The notes: a model not told the origin generated them from the letters alone. A stretch of DNA of 50,690 bases from Candidatus Saccharimonadales bacterium (GCA_044227985.1 JBGAVT010000005.1:1-50690); one strand, 5' to 3'. Counted from the first letter of the stretch, positions 1 through 7,441 are shown. Numbers and translations are program-made.

Positions 1-838
1 CAAAGTTTCCAATAACTTCCGCAAGCCTGCTCTCAAAGCCCCTAAAACCGTGCGAGGCACCGTCTATGACGGCAATTTGCGTATTCTCGTTCTTGATTCT
101 CTCAACACGTCCTAACCATTCGTCCATTGTGCCGTCAATTTCGGTAATGCCGATGTCGGCTGTTCCGTAAGGAATAAGCATTGGCAAACTTACTTTGCCA
201 AGTAATGCGCCACCCTCACGCTCGCCATAAATATCTGCCGAACTGCCAGCCTCGCAAATAGTTGGGTAAGTTTGTGCTGAAATAGGTGTTTTATCTAGCC
301 AACACTCCGCACTCACTAATTCTTGACCTTTGCTCTCGGCAATAAGTTGTTTTGCCTTTGCCAAATACTCTTGATGTTTCGAGTCGGTATTTGCCCAGCC
401 AGCCATATCAGTCGGGGCTAGTAAAACAACTTTTTCAACGCCAGTAATGTCCTGCGTTAGCACAAAGTTCACAACTTTGGTGCAACCGAGTGAGTGTCCT
501 TGCAGAATAAAGCGAGTTTTGCCGAGTGTTTTCAGACAATTTATTGCGCCTTGTATGTCGTGGACACTTTCCTCAAAAATCTCAAAACAACTACCAGCGT
601 GTTTCCAACCGTCATTTTGCCGAAAATCACTGATAATGCCACGCCCTCTGCTGTCTATGGTAAAAAGTGAAATGCCTTTTTGCTTATACATCTCACGCAA
701 ATTGTCCAAAAAGTAGTTTTCATAGCCGTTGCCAGACATACCGTGCAAATGAACAACGGCAATATCGCTGTTTTCGTTATTGAGCCAGCCTTGCAGTTCT
801 ACATTATCTGTGGCGTTGAAACGGACAAAATCAAGCAT
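1..838 (-). CDS. Alpha/beta-fold hydrolase (DUF1749-like), 3' end runs off the window
   Basis: Not in the ORF track. Hand translation from ATG at 838 gives MLDFVRFNATDNVELQGWL...HLHGMSGN...QGHSLG (nucleophile elbow)...YGTAD...GASHGF, with no stop before position 1. The start overlaps the SGNH gene stop. Confidence 0.85.
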   Translation of the reverse strand, partial: MLDFVRFNATDNVELQGWLNNENSDIAVVHLHGMSGNGYENYFLDNLREMYKQKGISLFTIDSRGRGIISDFRQNDGWKHAGSCFEIFEESVHDIQGAINCLKTLGKTRFILQGHSLGCTKVVNFVLTQDITGVEKVVLLAPTDMAGWANTDSKHQEYLAKAKQLIAESKGQELVSAECWLDKTPISAQTYPTICEAGSSADIYGEREGGALLGKVSLPMLIPYGTADIGITEIDGTMDEWLGRVERIKNENTQIAVIDGASHGFRGFESRLAEVIGNF

Positions 839-1481
839 GTTGTATTAACTCCGCCAGTGGTTGTGCTAATGTTAGATGTGATTGCTCGTCAAAATGTATA
901 CCGTCAAGTCCGGCCTTTGCGACCGTGCTCGCATCAAAGAATAGCGAGCCAGTTTCACTGGCTACCCTTTGTATTTCAGTTGCCAGTTGTTTTGATTTTT
1001 CGGCAGACTGTTTATCGTATGTATCGTGATAGTATTCGTCAAATTTCGGAGCACTATCGTTTACATAAATTGGGCTTACTAATAAAATCTTTGTTTCTTG
1101 GGAAGTTTCTCGGACTGCGTCAATAAACGGTTTTAGTGCGTCAGCAATTTCGGTAACTGGTCGTGAATACTGAACTTTTAGATCATTTGTGCCTAACATA
1201 ATAACGACAATATCAGTCGGCGAGTGGCTAGTAAGGCAAGGTACAAAATATGTAAGTCCGTTGCGGGATGGCTTGTTGGGGTTGTAGTGTTCTAGGTCAG
1301 TTGTGCGTCCACCCAAGCCCTCCTCAATAACATAGTAGTTGTTACCCAAAAGTTCTTGTAGTTTCCCAGTCCAGCGAACATTTACAGGGTATCTGCTTCC
1401 TGTGTTTTTATCGTCATTTTGACCCCAAGTATTACTGTCGCCATAACATAAAACTACTTTTGCTTGTGGGTTCGTATTCAT
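831..1481 (-). CDS. SGNH/GDSL family hydrolase
   Basis: Blocks YGDSNTWG, EEGLGGRT, MLGTND and DGIH. Confidence 0.93.
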   Translation of the reverse strand: MNTNPQAKVVLCYGDSNTWGQNDDKNTGSRYPVNVRWTGKLQELLGNNYYVIEEGLGGRTTDLEHYNPNKPSRNGLTYFVPCLTSHSPTDIVVIMLGTNDLKVQYSRPVTEIADALKPFIDAVRETSQETKILLVSPIYVNDSAPKFDEYYHDTYDKQSAEKSKQLATEIQRVASETGSLFFDASTVAKAGLDGIHFDEQSHLTLAQPLAELIQHA

Positions 1482-1511: not shown

Positions 1512-1700
1512 ACGCTCCGCTTGCGGAGCGTGTCGGTGTGCCGACCGAGCCACGCCGCCTCTGCCGCTTACGGCAGGCGCACCACCAGAAAAGCCTTTTC
1601 CACTCAAAAAGAAAAAATCGGCGGGGGAAATCTCAAAAAATGCAAAGGCTTTTTCTGGCGGGGCGCGTTCCAGCTTTGCTGGAACAGGCGGCGGGGCTTG
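1512..1700. other. GC-rich multi-hairpin structured element with a four-way junction (function unknown)
   Basis: Six abutting stems read from the sequence; details under findings. Confidence 0.75.
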
Positions 1701-1847
1701 CCTCGTTCAGCATTTTTCCTCAAAATAGGTTCTAGCGGAGTTGTAAAACCTCACCAACACATAATGTTAACTTTACATTAATTTTTTATTTTACTGTGTC
1801 CACTATTCTTAAAAATTCACTAGCTCTAAATGTCTATAGATAAAAAT

Positions 1848-2275
1848 TTAATTGTATTGAGCTAGTTCCAATATAATTCCTTCAGGCCCATGGAAGTAGC
1901 ATAATTTCTTATTCTTGCCATATTTATGTACGGTGCTAAAAAATTCAATACCTGCTAGCTGTAGTTTACTGTAAATTTGTTCAATGTCTGAAACTCGCAA
2001 GGCTAAATGCCTTAAACCAAGGTCGTTAGCATTATTAGAGTGGAGTGGTCTGCCTGTCGGATTCCGATAAGAAATCAACTCTAGTTTAGTTTCACTCTCA
2101 GCTAAACCTAATCGGATATATTCTGCCGACACACCAATAAGACCAACTACCCTTCCAATCGATTCACCGATTATATGATTATCGCGATTCAGGACTTTAA
2201 AGCCCAACATTTCCACAAAAAATTTTCTGCTGAGATGATATCTTCTACGACAATATTAATATGATCAATTACCAA
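1848..2275 (-). pseudogene. VOC/glyoxalase family protein, frameshifted near its 5' end
   Basis: C-terminal part (1848-2216) has GLRHLALRVSDIE and YFHGPEGIILEL. The N-terminal motif IDHINIVVED from TTG 2275 is in another frame; the shift falls in the homopolymer at 2217-2222. Confidence 0.75.
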
Positions 2276-2325
2276 ACACCCTAACAAAAATATATATTTT
2301 TTTAGGTAGAGAGAAAACTATCAAC

Positions 2326-4074
2326 TTATTTTGGAAGCTGCTTGTCGCTTTTGACTGACCAGTCTTGAACATTTCGATATCGACTAGAAATTGTGCCGAT
2401 TGTCTGATCCTCAACCATCGTTACACCAGGCTTGGAAACATACAATAATGATTGTTGAAATAGAGGAATCGCTGGTGCATCAACAAGCCATTGTTTCTGA
2501 AAAGCTGCATACTTGGCTTTGCGTAATTCAAGATCTTGACGAGTTCTTCCAGCTTCAAGCGATTCATCAACTCGCTTATTGCTGTAATTAGAAATGTTAA
2601 TTCCTTTTTTACCGACTTGTGAGCTATGCCAAAATGCAAATTGATCAGGATCAGCCCCAATTTCAAGCCCGTAGAGCAAAGTATCAAATTCTCGAGGAAT
2701 AATAATCTTTTGTTGTAGCTGACTAGAGTCGAGAGCTCTGACACTAGCACTGACACCTATTTCTTGCCATTGTTCCTGTAGTTCTTTAGCAAAATCTACC
2801 AAAATAGTATCTTTTTGGGTGAATATTACTGGTTCGAGCTTCTGACCATCTTTTTCCATGATTCCATTGGTATTTTTTTCCCAACCCGCTTGCTTGAGTG
2901 TATCTAATGCTTTTTCTTGTTGTGCGTACATTGGCTTATTAGCGACATAGCCAAGCTGTTCGCTTATGAGTGGTCCATCTATTTTTCTAAATGGTGCAGA
3001 TGTCTTTTGTTTGATTTCGGCTGGATCAGAAGCCTCTGTCAAGGCAGTTCGAACTTGTACATCGTCATATGGTGCTTTTGTAGTATTAAAAAATAAAAAA
3101 ATACTAGTATATTGTCTTAGGTTTCTAGTAATTACATCTTCTTTTTCAAATTTTTTGTAAGATTTCGGGTCAATATTTGATGCAGCAGTAAGCTGACCAT
3201 TACTAAAAGCTTTTTGAAGTTCATTTTTTGTTTTATAGCCAAGCAGTACAAAACGATCGAGCAAAGGCCTCTTTTTGAAATAATTCTTATTTGATTCGAG
3301 TTGGAGTTGCTGACCACCATTGCCCAGAGCAGCAAACCGAAATGGTCCAGTACCTACTGGGTGTTGATTAAAACTGGCAGTGCGTAAGTCAGATGGCTTA
3401 ACATCCTTCAAAATATGCTCAGGTAGTATTCCAGTAGTTAACGAATAAATAAACGGTGGGAAAGAGTTCGGCAGTGTGAATACCACTGTCGTATCATTTA
3501 CTGCTTTGCTAGTAACACCCTTCCAACTACTGAAAAGAGGAGAATCAACGTTCTCATCGGCAACCTGAGTGAATGTGTAGACAACGTCGCGGGCAGTTAA
3601 CGGCTTATCATCGTGCCAGTAGACGTCATCTCGAAGTTTGACTGTGTATTCAGTTCCCTCGTCATTCACTCTGATAGAAGATGCAACCTCAGGAACTAAT
3701 TCACCGTTTTTATCATATTGAAGCAGTCCATTAAAAATAAGCCCAACAGCAGAACGACTAGCTTCATTACTAGCAAATATTGGATTTATATTATCGACTC
3801 GGCCAATAACCCCCTCTTGATATACTCCACCGCGCGCAGGCTTTTCAACAAAAAATACTGAACGATTAAAACTGAACTGCGCCAGTAGTCCGATGATAAG
3901 TATAAGGACCAAACTGAGCCATCCAACAAAAAAACGTCGAACGGATTTCAACTTATGCCAAGGCTCTACAATATGATCACTAAACCATTGTTGAATTTCA
4001 CTAAGCTGAAAGCCGTTTTTAAGTCGCTGTTTGATGAAACGACGGACTTTAAATTTTTGGTAACTTGATAACAT
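2326..4074 (-). CDS. ABC transporter substrate-binding protein, family 5 (OppA/DppA-like), N-terminal membrane anchor
   Basis: YTVKLRDDVYWHDDKPLTARDVVYTF, PVGTGPF and DAPAIPLF motifs; one TM helix near aa 48-68. Confidence 0.92.
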   Translation of the reverse strand: MLSSYQKFKVRRFIKQRLKNGFQLSEIQQWFSDHIVEPWHKLKSVRRFFVGWLSLVLILIIGLLAQFSFNRSVFFVEKPARGGVYQEGVIGRVDNINPIFASNEASRSAVGLIFNGLLQYDKNGELVPEVASSIRVNDEGTEYTVKLRDDVYWHDDKPLTARDVVYTFTQVADENVDSPLFSSWKGVTSKAVNDTTVVFTLPNSFPPFIYSLTTGILPEHILKDVKPSDLRTASFNQHPVGTGPFRFAALGNGGQQLQLESNKNYFKKRPLLDRFVLLGYKTKNELQKAFSNGQLTAASNIDPKSYKKFEKEDVITRNLRQYTSIFLFFNTTKAPYDDVQVRTALTEASDPAEIKQKTSAPFRKIDGPLISEQLGYVANKPMYAQQEKALDTLKQAGWEKNTNGIMEKDGQKLEPVIFTQKDTILVDFAKELQEQWQEIGVSASVRALDSSQLQQKIIIPREFDTLLYGLEIGADPDQFAFWHSSQVGKKGINISNYSNKRVDESLEAGRTRQDLELRKAKYAAFQKQWLVDAPAIPLFQQSLLYVSKPGVTMVEDQTIGTISSRYRNVQDWSVKSDKQLPK

Positions 4075-4734: not shown

Positions 4735-5952
4735 CTAATCCCATCCTAGTCGGCTTGGCAAGCTTGCTGTTAATATTTCTGGTAATCCATCGGTGATACG
4801 AAGCATATCTTCGAGCCGCACGCCTATTTTTTCTTCTGGAATATAGATTCCTGGTTCAACCGTTACCACCATATTTGGTTGAAGCTTGTTACTGCGCGGC
4901 CCAACATCATGAACTTCTAGTCCGAGGTGATGACTAACAGCATGTGGGTAGTATTTGCGCAAATTATTACCATCACTTTTTAGACCGAGTTTTGTCAAAG
5001 CTTCTCGTGTCAACTCTTCAGTAATTTTCTCGATATCTTGGAGCGAGTTCTCGATTGTGAAGTGGTTAATGATGTCAGTATGTATACTTAAAACCGCTTC
5101 AAAAACTTCCTTCTGCCGTTTTGTTGGTTTACCTCGTGGAATTGTTCGAGTTATATCGGCGGCATATTGGCTGAACTGTGTAGCAGCATCAACCAAGACC
5201 AATTGGTTATCAGTTAAGTCGAAGCTGTCGGTATGATGAATCGTAGCCGCGTTTGCCCCACATCCAACAATCGTTGTGTAGGCAGGTTGCTCTCCACCAT
5301 TGAGGATGCATTGGTAGTCAAAAAATTGCGCGACCTGTCTTTCGCTATTAAGGCTTTGTATCTTTTCTGGTAATGCCAGAAAAGCTTGCATACTAATGTC
5401 GGCCGCCCTTTGAAGCGCCTGAATCTCTTCAGGCTTTTTGATACCACGGATTTTCTTAAAAATACCAGAGGAACTTTTTAGTGATATGGTCGGTTTATCA
5501 CGTCGTAGTCGATGCGCCAATCGACGTAACGATGGATTTTCAATCATTTCAGCTTCTGGTGTTGGTGCGGTGATATAAAGAGTATCGTAGGTTTCGAGTA
5601 TCTGCGAATAAGTGTGGGCCGCGTCTCCGCTTGAAATAACATGTTCGATACCACTGGTCTGTTGTATATCCTTGATACTGTTCTGGCCATTCCACTGGGC
5701 TGTAAACTCACTTCGGGGAGTAATGATTAAAATTGACTGTGGCGAACCATCTTTTTTCTTACCTAGGTAAAGTACTGCACCTGGCTCGTTTGGTAAGCCT
5801 GTCAAGTAATAAAAATTTGGTTCTTGCCAAAACGGAAAGGCTACATCACCGCGACCTTGTAGTTGGTCGTGCGAAGCGATAGCCGCCCAACTCCCATCAG
5901 GTAGCGCATTAATAAACTCTATTCGGTTGGCTTTATAAAATGTTTTTTTCAT
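4735..5952 (-). CDS. pepP: Xaa-Pro aminopeptidase (M24B)
   Basis: FWQEPNFYYLTG, YAADITRT, HHLGLEVHD, TVEPGIY and GVRLED motifs; start moved to MKKTFY to avoid overlap with uvrC. Confidence 0.9.
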   Translation of the reverse strand: MKKTFYKANRIEFINALPDGSWAAIASHDQLQGRGDVAFPFWQEPNFYYLTGLPNEPGAVLYLGKKKDGSPQSILIITPRSEFTAQWNGQNSIKDIQQTSGIEHVISSGDAAHTYSQILETYDTLYITAPTPEAEMIENPSLRRLAHRLRRDKPTISLKSSSGIFKKIRGIKKPEEIQALQRAADISMQAFLALPEKIQSLNSERQVAQFFDYQCILNGGEQPAYTTIVGCGANAATIHHTDSFDLTDNQLVLVDAATQFSQYAADITRTIPRGKPTKRQKEVFEAVLSIHTDIINHFTIENSLQDIEKITEELTREALTKLGLKSDGNNLRKYYPHAVSHHLGLEVHDVGPRSNKLQPNMVVTVEPGIYIPEEKIGVRLEDMLRITDGLPEILTASLPSRLGWD

Positions 5953-5995: not shown

Positions 5996-7441
5996 CTAGC
6001 GTAGATACTGCGATATTGTCTTAGCTCTTTTGATACCAACAACCTGACTGATTTCTTCATCACTAGCTTTTAAAATTCCGCCAAGACTTCCAAAACTTTT
6101 GATTAATTTTTTCCGAGTAGCTGGGCCAACACCGGGGATTTCGTCAAGTCGGCTAGCGGTTTGGTTTTTACGTTTGAGGCTTGTGTGATAACTAACCGCA
6201 AAACGATGACTTTCATCACGGATTCTTATTAATAATTTCAGTGCGTGCGAACGATTTTTGTCGAGCTGGATTTCGTCAAATTCTAGCTGACTTGTTGCTT
6301 GGTTACCATGGGCGAGAATTATTGTTTCGTACCTTTTCGCTAACCCAATAGCCGGAATTGAAACTTCTAGCTCTCTTAAGGCGTTAAGCGCAGCATGTAG
6401 CTGCCCCTTTCCACCGTCAATCAGTAGTAATTCAGGATCTCGCCACTTGTCTCGATTCTTTTTAGAAAAGCGCCGCGATATTACTTCATGCATATGAGCA
6501 AAGTCATCATTACCAAGAATCCTCATCTTGAATTTTCGATATTGTCCTTTATCGCTAACACCATTTGTAAACACAACCATACTTGCCACGTTATTTGTGC
6601 CTGACTGATGGCTGATATCATATCCTTCAATCCTAAGCGGCAATTTATTAATCCCAGCAATTGCTTGGAGCTCGCTAAGCGCACTGTCATTTTGACTATC
6701 AAATAACTCTTTGTCGCCGAATATAATTTGTTTATGAAGATTTTCTAAACCTTGTAACTGATCTCTTAGTCGAGCGGCATGCTCATAATTTTTCTGATTT
6801 GCAGCCAACTTCATCGATCGTCGCAGTCCAGCTTCTAAACGATTTCGATTTCCTAGTAGATATTCACTAAGATAGCGTAAATTTTGTCGATAATCGCTCA
6901 AGCTTGTCATGCCAGCTTCAACGCCTGGACTTAATCCAATATCACTATACAGCCTCGAACTGCGAGCACCCGATTTTTTTGGTTGTTTGTAGTCAAAAGG
7001 AAAAATTCGACGTAAATATTTTAGCGCCATTGTAATACTACCAACATAAGGACCGAAATAGTCTGCTTCATCATCAGCGGGCCTGCGGACAATCTCTATA
7101 ATGGGATGATCCGATTTAAAATCGATTCGGACATACTGGTAGTGCTTATCGTCACGTAGCAAGATATTGTAACGTGGCATATAGCGCTTGATCATTTCAC
7201 TCTCCAGGAACAAAGCCTGGATCTCGCTATCAACTTCAAGCCACGTCACGTCATCAATCTCACTAACTAATAGTTCAGTTTTCGGATCGCGGGCTCGACT
7301 CTGCTGAAAATATTGACGAACCCGATTGCGTAATACTGCCGCTTTACCAACATAGATAATTTCACCACTTGCACTTTTATGGAAATAGACTCCAGGTTTT
7401 TTAGGGAGGTTTTTTAGTTTTATCTCTAGTTTTTGATTCAT
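5996..7441 (-). CDS. uvrC: Excinuclease ABC subunit C
   Basis: GIY-YIG domain (PGVY..IYVGKA), RIEGYDISH, LIDGGKGQL, RDESHRFA and HhH; start MNQKL. Confidence 0.96.
   Translation of the reverse strand: MNQKLEIKLKNLPKKPGVYFHKSASGEIIYVGKAAVLRNRVRQYFQQSRARDPKTELLVSEIDDVTWLEVDSEIQALFLESEMIKRYMPRYNILLRDDKHYQYVRIDFKSDHPIIEIVRRPADDEADYFGPYVGSITMALKYLRRIFPFDYKQPKKSGARSSRLYSDIGLSPGVEAGMTSLSDYRQNLRYLSEYLLGNRNRLEAGLRRSMKLAANQKNYEHAARLRDQLQGLENLHKQIIFGDKELFDSQNDSALSELQAIAGINKLPLRIEGYDISHQSGTNNVASMVVFTNGVSDKGQYRKFKMRILGNDDFAHMHEVISRRFSKKNRDKWRDPELLLIDGGKGQLHAALNALRELEVSIPAIGLAKRYETIILAHGNQATSQLEFDEIQLDKNRSHALKLLIRIRDESHRFAVSYHTSLKRKNQTASRLDEIPGVGPATRKKLIKSFGSLGGILKASDEEISQVVGIKRAKTISQYLR

Follow-up and report, generated by a model that had tools for sequence, protein, structure and literature searches.

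Serine recombinases act on double-stranded sites and without folded intermediates. Those of the phage type (phiC31, Bxb1, A118) use simple attP and attB sites with a short shared core, and we know of no phage-type system that has a conserved four-way module beside attP, a second, inverted attP, or cargo enclosed in inverted arms of 200-300 bp. In integrons, a tyrosine recombinase acts on a folded single strand, with single imperfect hairpins as sites, direct arrays and a Pc promoter. Saccharibacteria and other Patescibacteria have tiny genomes in which few mobile elements have been recognised. Titles and abstract openings from the literature on Patescibacteria, Saccharibacteria and CPR bacteria contained no description of elements or of a module like those reported here. 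The nearest described system found, as far as the consulted portions of the published account go, is that of the ssrA-specific genomic islands of Dehalococcoides, which are moved by the large serine recombinase (LSR) DsiB (McMurdie et al. 2011, PMC3146451). A further parallel is the integration-dependent immunity of mycobacteriophage BPs, in which a gene of the element contains the attachment site and has its 3' end altered by integration (PMC4557955).

The locus compared with these systems lies in a stretch of 50,690 nucleotides (the window), which represents the first 50.7 kb of contig C34 of a Candidatus Saccharimonadales genome; the element is 1.5 kb from the contig end. The G+C-rich sequence at 1512-1700 contains a structured module (~160-190 nt), the inner portion of the long inverted repeats that form the arms of a saccharibacterial, tRNA-targeting LSR integrative element. 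An unclassified non-coding RNA was one of the options raised by the first-pass annotation. A conserved, structured module without a known family is indeed present, but it is a built-in part of the arms of a mobile element and not an independent RNA gene.

The module proper is a four-way junction of the helices P1-P4 at 1546-1700. P1 (1546-1560/1686-1700; 13 Watson-Crick pairs, one G-T pair and one mismatch) encloses P2 (1561-1566/1571-1576), P3 (1577-1598/1644-1666) and P4 (1667-1674/1678-1685), and P3 carries a conserved, purine-rich loop of 45 nt (1599-1643) containing GGCGGGGG. As read from the sequence, the helices abut with zero unpaired bases between them. On the side of P1 lie hairpin A (1512-1520/1523-1531, 9 bp), whose place is taken in relatives by hairpins of other sequence, and hairpin B (1532-1536/1541-1545, 5 bp), instead of which relatives have other hairpins. 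The minimum-energy fold of 1500-1720 yields P1-P4 and hairpin A on the plus strand (-102.7 kcal/mol, z -5.23), and P1-P4 with both hairpins on the minus strand (-110.7 kcal/mol, z -7.53); on each strand 0 of 200 shuffles were as good. The six helices of the first-pass annotation and their gapless junction were thereby confirmed in the sequence, and the folds of the two strands reproduced them except for hairpin B on the plus strand. One strand of the module also carries three G-rich repeats (GGCGGGG).

At gathering thresholds, 0 Rfam covariance models matched anywhere in the window, in agreement with the earlier view that no described family applies. In a permissive scan of 1400-1900 the hits with the best E-values reached 12-18 bits against cut-offs of 40-176, which is chance level, and ARAGORN returned 0 tRNA and 0 tmRNA genes in the window. 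None of P1-P4 or hairpins A and B is a G+C-rich hairpin directly before a T run in the terminator scan, and since no U tract stands behind any of its helices, the module is not a canonical intrinsic terminator. The scan reported only an alternative hairpin at 1690-1707 on the plus strand, in which the 3' strand of P1 pairs instead with 1701-1707 to give seven pairs followed by a T run. With three of its pairs being G-T, this hairpin, which would compete with P1, is weak.

The four-way fold goes far beyond chance and is strongly conserved. In an alignment of 26 homologues from other genomes, RNAalifold predicted 34 pairs, 23 of them with compensatory double changes. When the fold of the window was projected on the same alignment, 81.5% of cells could pair compared to 71.5% in shuffles, and changes on both sides occurred in 29 of the 48 pairs, so that the compensatory changes by which the first-pass annotation had proposed to judge the element are present. 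The covariation score of 0.292 was reached by 0 of 500 shuffles (0.127) and dropped to 0.05-0.12 when the partners were slid by 1-3 columns as a control. Helices P2 and P4 have had their sequence wholly replaced among the 26 copies while the hairpins were kept, and P1 and P3 show paired substitutions. Conservation of sequence is concentrated in the loop and the base of P3, with 17 invariant columns in the alignment.

A covariance model built from this alignment (R1) scored the window with 174 bits on the plus strand and 73 bits on the minus strand, the plus orientation being far higher because of the conserved purine-rich loop. The model found 68 places in 43 sources, representing 66 distinct sequences, and matched 12 of 150 further genomes sampled across the phylum. 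By DNA search, relatives were found in 9 of 61 sampled genomes, the own genome included (of the other 60, 57 represent different families within the same order), and within the order in 68 of 401 genomes, a count that includes the own genome and one unpublished genome (G280); 39 of the 68 had at least two matches. A 20-nt motif of the P3 loop occurred in 117 stretches of a species-level genome collection, nearly all of them named Candidatus Saccharibacteria or Saccharimonas, and the few under other names that hold the whole module are mostly short contigs. In a viral collection the motif was hit four times, and the whole module was present only in one 45-kb IMG/VR contig (L074, 2937-3099, 72.5 bits), which may be a phage or a misfiled Saccharibacteria fragment. 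By tblastn, no LSR was found in the 6 kb examined of this viral contig or within ~3.5 kb at eight phylum-level loci, several of which stop at contig ends.

The surroundings of the module in relatives place it in the arms of an LSR element. Among 25 loci that were read, 21 have inverted module pairs 1.2-5 kb apart that flank unrelated accessory genes, although 20 of the 25 had been picked for two nearby DNA matches and the proportion is not an unbiased rate. The genes between the arms differ by genome and include acetyltransferases, NUDIX and SET proteins, methyltransferases, racemases, peptidases, kinases, glyoxalases and CdiA_C-domain proteins. At 14 of the 25 loci an LSR of 520-600 aa, with the Pfam domains Resolvase, Recombinase and Zn_ribbon_recom, lies just outside the pair and is transcribed away from it. 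In 11 relatives among these 14 loci, the LSR sequence departs from the family consensus at about residue 505-514, the point at which the frame runs into the 3' end of a convergently oriented tRNA gene; target tRNAs in relatives are those for Leu, Gly, Gln, Thr, Met and Glu. The attachment site is thus inside the 3' end of the LSR gene, and when the element enters a tRNA 3' end, the final ~16 codons are consequently separated from the gene, along with module and cargo. Beside the LSR promoter there is normally a further, inverted copy of tail and module, here termed the spare copy; it was present in 12 relatives and leaves the cargo between inverted arms. It retains ~50-60 LSR codons and ends past two embedded terminators, just before the LSR promoter.

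The window represents the recombinase-distal end of such an integrated element, the middle of which is missing from the assembly. It reads, in order, chromosome, CACCA core, split-off LSR tail on the minus strand, module, leaderless cargo promoter, GDSL lipase and alpha/beta hydrolase. The tail (last 16 codons LVRFYNSARTYFEEKC plus stop; 1707-1757, minus strand) was recognised by its match to the LSR C-terminus, with the translation of minus-strand 1710-1766 identical to residues 512-527 of a 529-aa LSR at 11 of 16 positions (E 2e-6 in a single comparison). Within it lies a conserved box, AAAATAGGTTCTAGC at 1722-1736, a putative recombinase half-site that resembles the T-loop region of a tRNA and makes up the distal portion of the attachment-site arm on the side of the element. 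Homology switches at the shared core CACCA (1752-1756), which marks the junction of element and chromosome. A ~35-codon ORF ending in 'ARTYF' at 1722-1736, considered as a small conserved protein, is the tail of the LSR gene. Just beyond the core, an AT-rich hairpin with a T run (1762-1792, plus strand), read from the sequence and with too few G-C pairs for the terminator scan, is presumably the trailer terminator of the target tRNA-Leu gene, now located at the other end of the element. The G+C content is ~0.41-0.48 in the cargo, 0.58 in the module and 0.31-0.37 just right of the junction, and this step fits a foreign origin of the element. Right of the junction, a glyoxalase-family ORF (1848-2216, minus strand, and 2217-2325) covers only Pfam model positions 22-121 and has a GTG start; it may be truncated or frameshifted.

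The first-pass annotation had placed the structure at the edge of an accessory region, directly upstream of a two-hydrolase unit. This holds, as both hydrolases are cargo of the element and the flanking genes differ among genomes. The first cargo gene encodes a GDSL/SGNH lipase-acylhydrolase (831-1481, minus strand; Pfam Lipase_GDSL_2, E 2.3e-20) and the second an alpha/beta hydrolase that runs off the contig start (2-838, minus strand; Pfam Hydrolase_4, DUF1749, Abhydrolase_1). The predicted cargo promoter is a TG-extended -10 box, TGTTATAAT at 1488-1496 on the minus strand, without a -35 box and hence unlisted by the consensus promoter scan. It is located 6 nt before the ATG at 1481-1479, which implies a leaderless cargo mRNA. 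A small hairpin with a CAGA/TCTG stem (1495-1508) overlaps the promoter spacer and recurs in the start arms, described below, of five relatives (G294, G102, G248, G204, G014).

The other end of the element can be recognised in the same genome. Contig C13 begins, at its edge, with an LSR from residue 39 onward that is 69% identical to the enzyme of relative G102 and is fused to tRNA-Leu(CAG), and this junction and that of the window share only TGGTG on the LSR strand (CACCA on the plus strand). The own genome, represented by C13 and the window, thus has the LSR split at about residue 513 with its tail at the other end, as in a tRNA-targeting LSR element. The congener G001 has the counterparts of both flanks, that of tRNA-Leu(CAG) on C13 and the right one of the window, on a single contig, separated by 1.5 kb; other genes lie between them, and G001 was therefore rejected as an empty site, as it offers no clean attB. 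The own assembly (1.07 Mb, 38 contigs, 90% complete) contains one assembled copy of the module, and the spare copy is absent from it. Contigs from the DNA runs X2 and X12, however, run on past 1756 into the own LSR 3' coding sequence in reverse complement, with tail, core and LSR unsplit, as expected of a spare copy or a circle. As to the copy number and flanks that the first-pass annotation proposed to check, a single copy is assembled here, with a second implied by reads, and the flanks do vary among genomes.

In a contig of a further DNA run, X3, 227 nt of LSR 3' coding sequence up to the core are joined to window position 1727 onward on the plus strand. The LSR would then end in LVRF-stop abutting the chromosome, without module or cargo; a 25-nt segment of the tail has inverted ends, and the junction may be a deletion or a recombinase product. 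The own genome probably holds a second element of the LSR family, as contig C19 starts with a more distant LSR 3' fragment (L067, 3-590), which is 39% identical over its C-terminal region and joined to tRNA-Leu(GAG). At the locus of relative G102 (L047), the LSR keeps a complete tail of its own followed by a different GC-rich hairpin (7140-7260), and distal and spare copies are present as well; three tails in one locus do not fit a simple model of one integration. The same locus (5480-5614) and its equivalents have an LSR 5' leader in which a -10 box of the TGGTAAAAT type is followed by two interleaved long inverted repeats (A5'-B5'-A3'-B3') and a G-rich Shine-Dalgarno sequence. These repeats could possibly form a pseudoknot or alternative structures and represent a separate regulatory element.

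Repeated between the arms are P3, P4 and the 3' strand of P1, with the LSR tail and the core behind them. Towards the cargo, the arms end in non-repeated sequence, of which there are two kinds. In 'start' ends, as in the window, the 5' strand of P1 and P2 are accompanied by two more hairpins, and the first cargo ATG follows 6-7 nt behind a TG-extended -10 box, a layout recognised in the window and in some further start arms. At 'stop' ends the P1 5' strand is short, and a small hairpin starts only a few bases from the stop codon of the last cargo gene. Among 64 copies, the inner ORF reads into the module in 30, with its stop mostly -30 to +45 nt away, and away from the module in 21, while 13 have no ORF within 250 nt. 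Start and stop ends both occur at the arm next to the LSR as well as at the distal one, which means that the sequence enclosed by the arms has been inverted during evolution. Truncated copies of the module occur, and arms are often identical within one genome (two copies in G013 are 100% identical). In the relative G097, the inner P3 and its loop are inverted relative to the surrounding module in both copies (L059, 3031-3182 and 6806-6957), a naturally occurring flip of the segment between two hairpin arms.

Canonical terminators lie beyond the module on the outward side, at stop arms tens to ~130 nt past its 3' end. At the distal arm this is presumably the tRNA trailer terminator at 1762-1792, and at the spare copy it is a pair of hairpin-plus-T-run sites that the LSR 3' coding region contains in antisense. 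These two sites are located just downstream of the fused tRNA 3' end (1310-1403 on the minus strand of locus L066 on C13, 5374-5467 at the G102 locus, and at other loci), and their stems covary while the encoded residues change. They look like built-in terminators of tRNA read-through after integration. A 'KIARMG' motif that had been considered turned out to be a hairpin of the LSR coding region whose sequence covaries. Two candidates within the P3 loop were also rejected: a promoter, as neither strand has acceptable hexamers, and an ORF start, as the ATG is missing from many aligned copies. No promoter for the plus orientation was found at start arms by sequence reading or promoter scan.

Whether RNA or DNA is the folded molecule was approached from several sides. 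The statement of the first-pass annotation that wobble pairs favour neither strand holds, with 142 G-T against 110 A-C cells in the model-fitted alignment and, in per-copy folds, a surplus of G-U pairs in the plus orientation in 18 copies against 17; register shifts in P3 blur this comparison in part. With RNA parameters the plus orientation was more stable in 23 of 39 copies, and with DNA parameters in 35 of 39. Contigs of the RNA library X16 match 1495-1606, 1577-1666 and 1637-1748 exactly; they carry no strand or end information and may include DNA. They do not cover 1877-4000 and cover the cargo at a low level, which, as these are contigs, is not evidence on expression.

The favoured, though tentative, explanation is that the module is a two-way boundary piece, made of folded RNA, of a platform for cargo expression. 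The module would fold as RNA in either orientation. At a start arm it would stand directly upstream of the leaderless cargo promoter of the element and shield promoter and cargo from read-in transcription, and at a stop arm, just behind the last cargo stop codon, it would give the transcripts a stable or processable 3' domain. Since the arms are inverted copies of one sequence, this sequence meets RNA polymerase both ways and must fold on both strands, which would account both for the perfect helices and for the absence of a strand bias. A role in transcription is further argued for by the module being set against a promoter or a stop codon with terminators beyond. Several observations count against it. 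No U tract stands behind the helices; loop and base of P3 are conserved in sequence, which a purely structural barrier would not need; the start arm beside the LSR promoter has no known promoter to transcribe it; the 35 of 39 copies with the more stable plus orientation under DNA parameters and the lack of an LSR near the phylum-level loci searched do not favour it; and the flipped loop of G097 is more easily tolerated by a role at the level of DNA.

Such a role, in which the palindromes and P1 would fold as hairpins or cruciforms in single-stranded or supercoiled DNA, has some appeal and is on the whole unlikely, even when its variants (flip-flop of the cargo between inverted arms, synapsis, second-strand priming after DNA uptake, or a mark for host proteins) are taken together. 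Wobble pairs and fold energies without strand bias, the junction without a single unpaired base, and the three GGCGGGG repeats on one strand would all fit DNA, as would the proximity of the module to the recombination core (~60-110 nt among copies). The recombined P3 arms of G097, in which the loop was flipped in DNA while the element otherwise seems intact, and the past inversion recorded by start and stop ends at either arm point the same way. The recombinase, on the other hand, belongs to a class that uses duplex sites and no folded intermediates, the module lies outside the ~50-bp span expected of its site, and neither an HUH enzyme nor an integron integrase is nearby. Four separate covarying helices are also hard to explain by a protein binding duplex DNA, and the fixed position relative to stop codons and promoters is a better fit to transcription. 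The folded single-stranded DNA substrate suggested by the first-pass annotation is for the same reason unsupported, as the associated enzyme is an LSR. More speculative, and improbable at present, is an antisense control of the recombinase. Outward transcripts from the arms would carry the module at their 5' end, followed by antisense to the LSR tail and, from the spare copy, also to LSR codons ~466-513, and would keep LSR levels low; the module would stabilise this RNA, with its loops starting the pairing with the complementary module in the 3' region of the LSR mRNA. The ~50-60 LSR codons of the spare copy far exceed what a half-site needs, the copy ends after two embedded terminators and before the LSR promoter, the arms are perfectly complementary by construction (as in the identical copies of G013), and stop arms orient cargo transcripts in exactly this way. 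Yet in the integrated state the LSR mRNA lacks tail and module, and only one of the two cargo orientations is then antisense to the remaining LSR. Known antisense systems have short loops, unlike the 45-nt loop found here.

Slightly more doubtful again is a self-standing structured RNA, or a recombinase cofactor, encoded in the arms and acting in trans, for which the conserved P3 loop would be the recognition surface. The concentration of conservation in the loop and base of P3, the higher score of the plus orientation in the window (174 vs 73 bits), the RNA-library contigs over the module and a downstream terminator in both arm contexts (the LSR antisense sites and the AT-rich hairpin at 1762-1792) are consistent with it. 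The plus orientation nevertheless has no promoter that could be found at start arms, the module always abuts cargo or promoter and leaves no room for a transcription unit of its own, some spare copies (G102, G327, G358, G308) have lost the P1 5' arm and P2, and the loop is flipped in G097. A distinctly remote idea is that a structured strand from both arms, RNA or single-stranded DNA, partners the LSR and licenses or directs capture, exchange or inversion of cargo. Least probable of all would be a module without any function, a recombination relic carried along and homogenised between the arms. Identical arms within a genome and truncated copies would agree with this, but the covariation already disfavours it: the helices survive full replacement of their sequence (P4 and hairpins A and B) as well as paired substitutions, across families and in the sample of the phylum. 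The unique, non-repeated inner ends moreover still hold a strand complementary to the P1 3' arm.

If the two-way boundary in cargo expression proposed above is correct, it would explain how unrelated cargo without promoters or leaders is both expressed and insulated at any landing site. The LSR family appears to be a main route by which Saccharibacteria and other Patescibacteria gain accessory genes, here two hydrolases, and the module is the most conserved non-coding part of the element. Its covariation is of a quality usual for functional RNA, yet it belongs to no known family and shows no strand preference. Some Saccharibacteria can now be grown and transformed, and the module is a compact, portable and testable part. 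Should it instead act with the recombinase, a serine recombinase would have a requirement of a new kind.

Compared with described repeat and site classes, the module proved to be something else. The first-pass annotation had seen a cassette boundary of the attC, REPIN or MITE kind. The module does mark the edge of swappable cargo, whereas the assignment to these classes falls away: there is one assembled copy, its neighbours in relatives are LSR genes, and the arrangement is in inverted pairs and not in direct arrays. For attC sites, an IntI-type neighbour, a direct array and a single imperfect, strand-specific hairpin with extrahelical bases are all lacking; for REP, REPIN or MITE sequences, copies in relatives occur only in recombinase elements, and no RAYT or Y1 HUH enzyme was found. 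The HUH transposase model PF01797 gave 0 matches in the genome, compared to matches in 6 of 14 control genomes, and of the tyrosine recombinases for which the first-pass annotation proposed to look, the genome has only two Phage_integrase genes, on contigs C35 and C36. The module is also distinct from the attachment site. The attP or attL site proper is expected to span ~40-50 bp around the core at 1752-1756, the module ends at 1700, and the spacing between module and box varies from ~20 to 110 nt in relatives; this makes the module a neighbour of the site and not the site.

In mycobacteriophage BPs, the split gene is said to be a repressor and the integrase is reportedly of another kind. The element described here shares with BPs an attachment site within a gene of the element itself and differs in its arms, the consulted portions of the BPs account describing no structured arm module (PMC4557955). 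The likeness to the Dehalococcoides islands goes further. Both integrate at the 3' end of a tRNA-like gene, carry variable cargo and have no transfer genes; in both, the recombinase gene reaches with its 3' end into the attachment site, and for the islands the authors considered that it may be complete only on the circular form; and both have a conserved locus, of the cloverleaf (tRNA-like) type within the integration module of the islands (PMC3146451). There, according to the same portions of the text, the integration module consists of six genes (dsiA, parB, mom and others), the repeats are direct and 20 bp long, ssrA is the only target, and the tRNA-like locus is a true cloverleaf of 76 bp located 4.4 kb from attL (PMC3146451). 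Here, the LSR is the only constant gene, many tRNAs are targets, the shared core has 5 nt, and a spare inverted site is present; the module of ~160 nt is not tRNA-like by ARAGORN and lies in both arms beside the site.

With the phage-type serine integrases, the LSR shares the domains Resolvase, Recombinase and Zn_ribbon_recom as well as simple sites with a short shared core, and, as read from the sequences, an element-side arm motif that lies a few bases further from the core than that of the tRNA side. The organisation as a platform is rather that of an integron, with swappable cargo lacking promoters, a promoter supplied by the platform, folded boundary elements and a recombinase gene divergent from the cargo. 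The differences from integrons are the serine recombinase, the four-way junction, the inverted pairs and the absence of strand bias. Were a folded strand from the arms to prove a partner of the recombinase, the element would resemble an integron or a bridge-RNA system, yet be based on a serine recombinase, a class thought to need only duplex sites.
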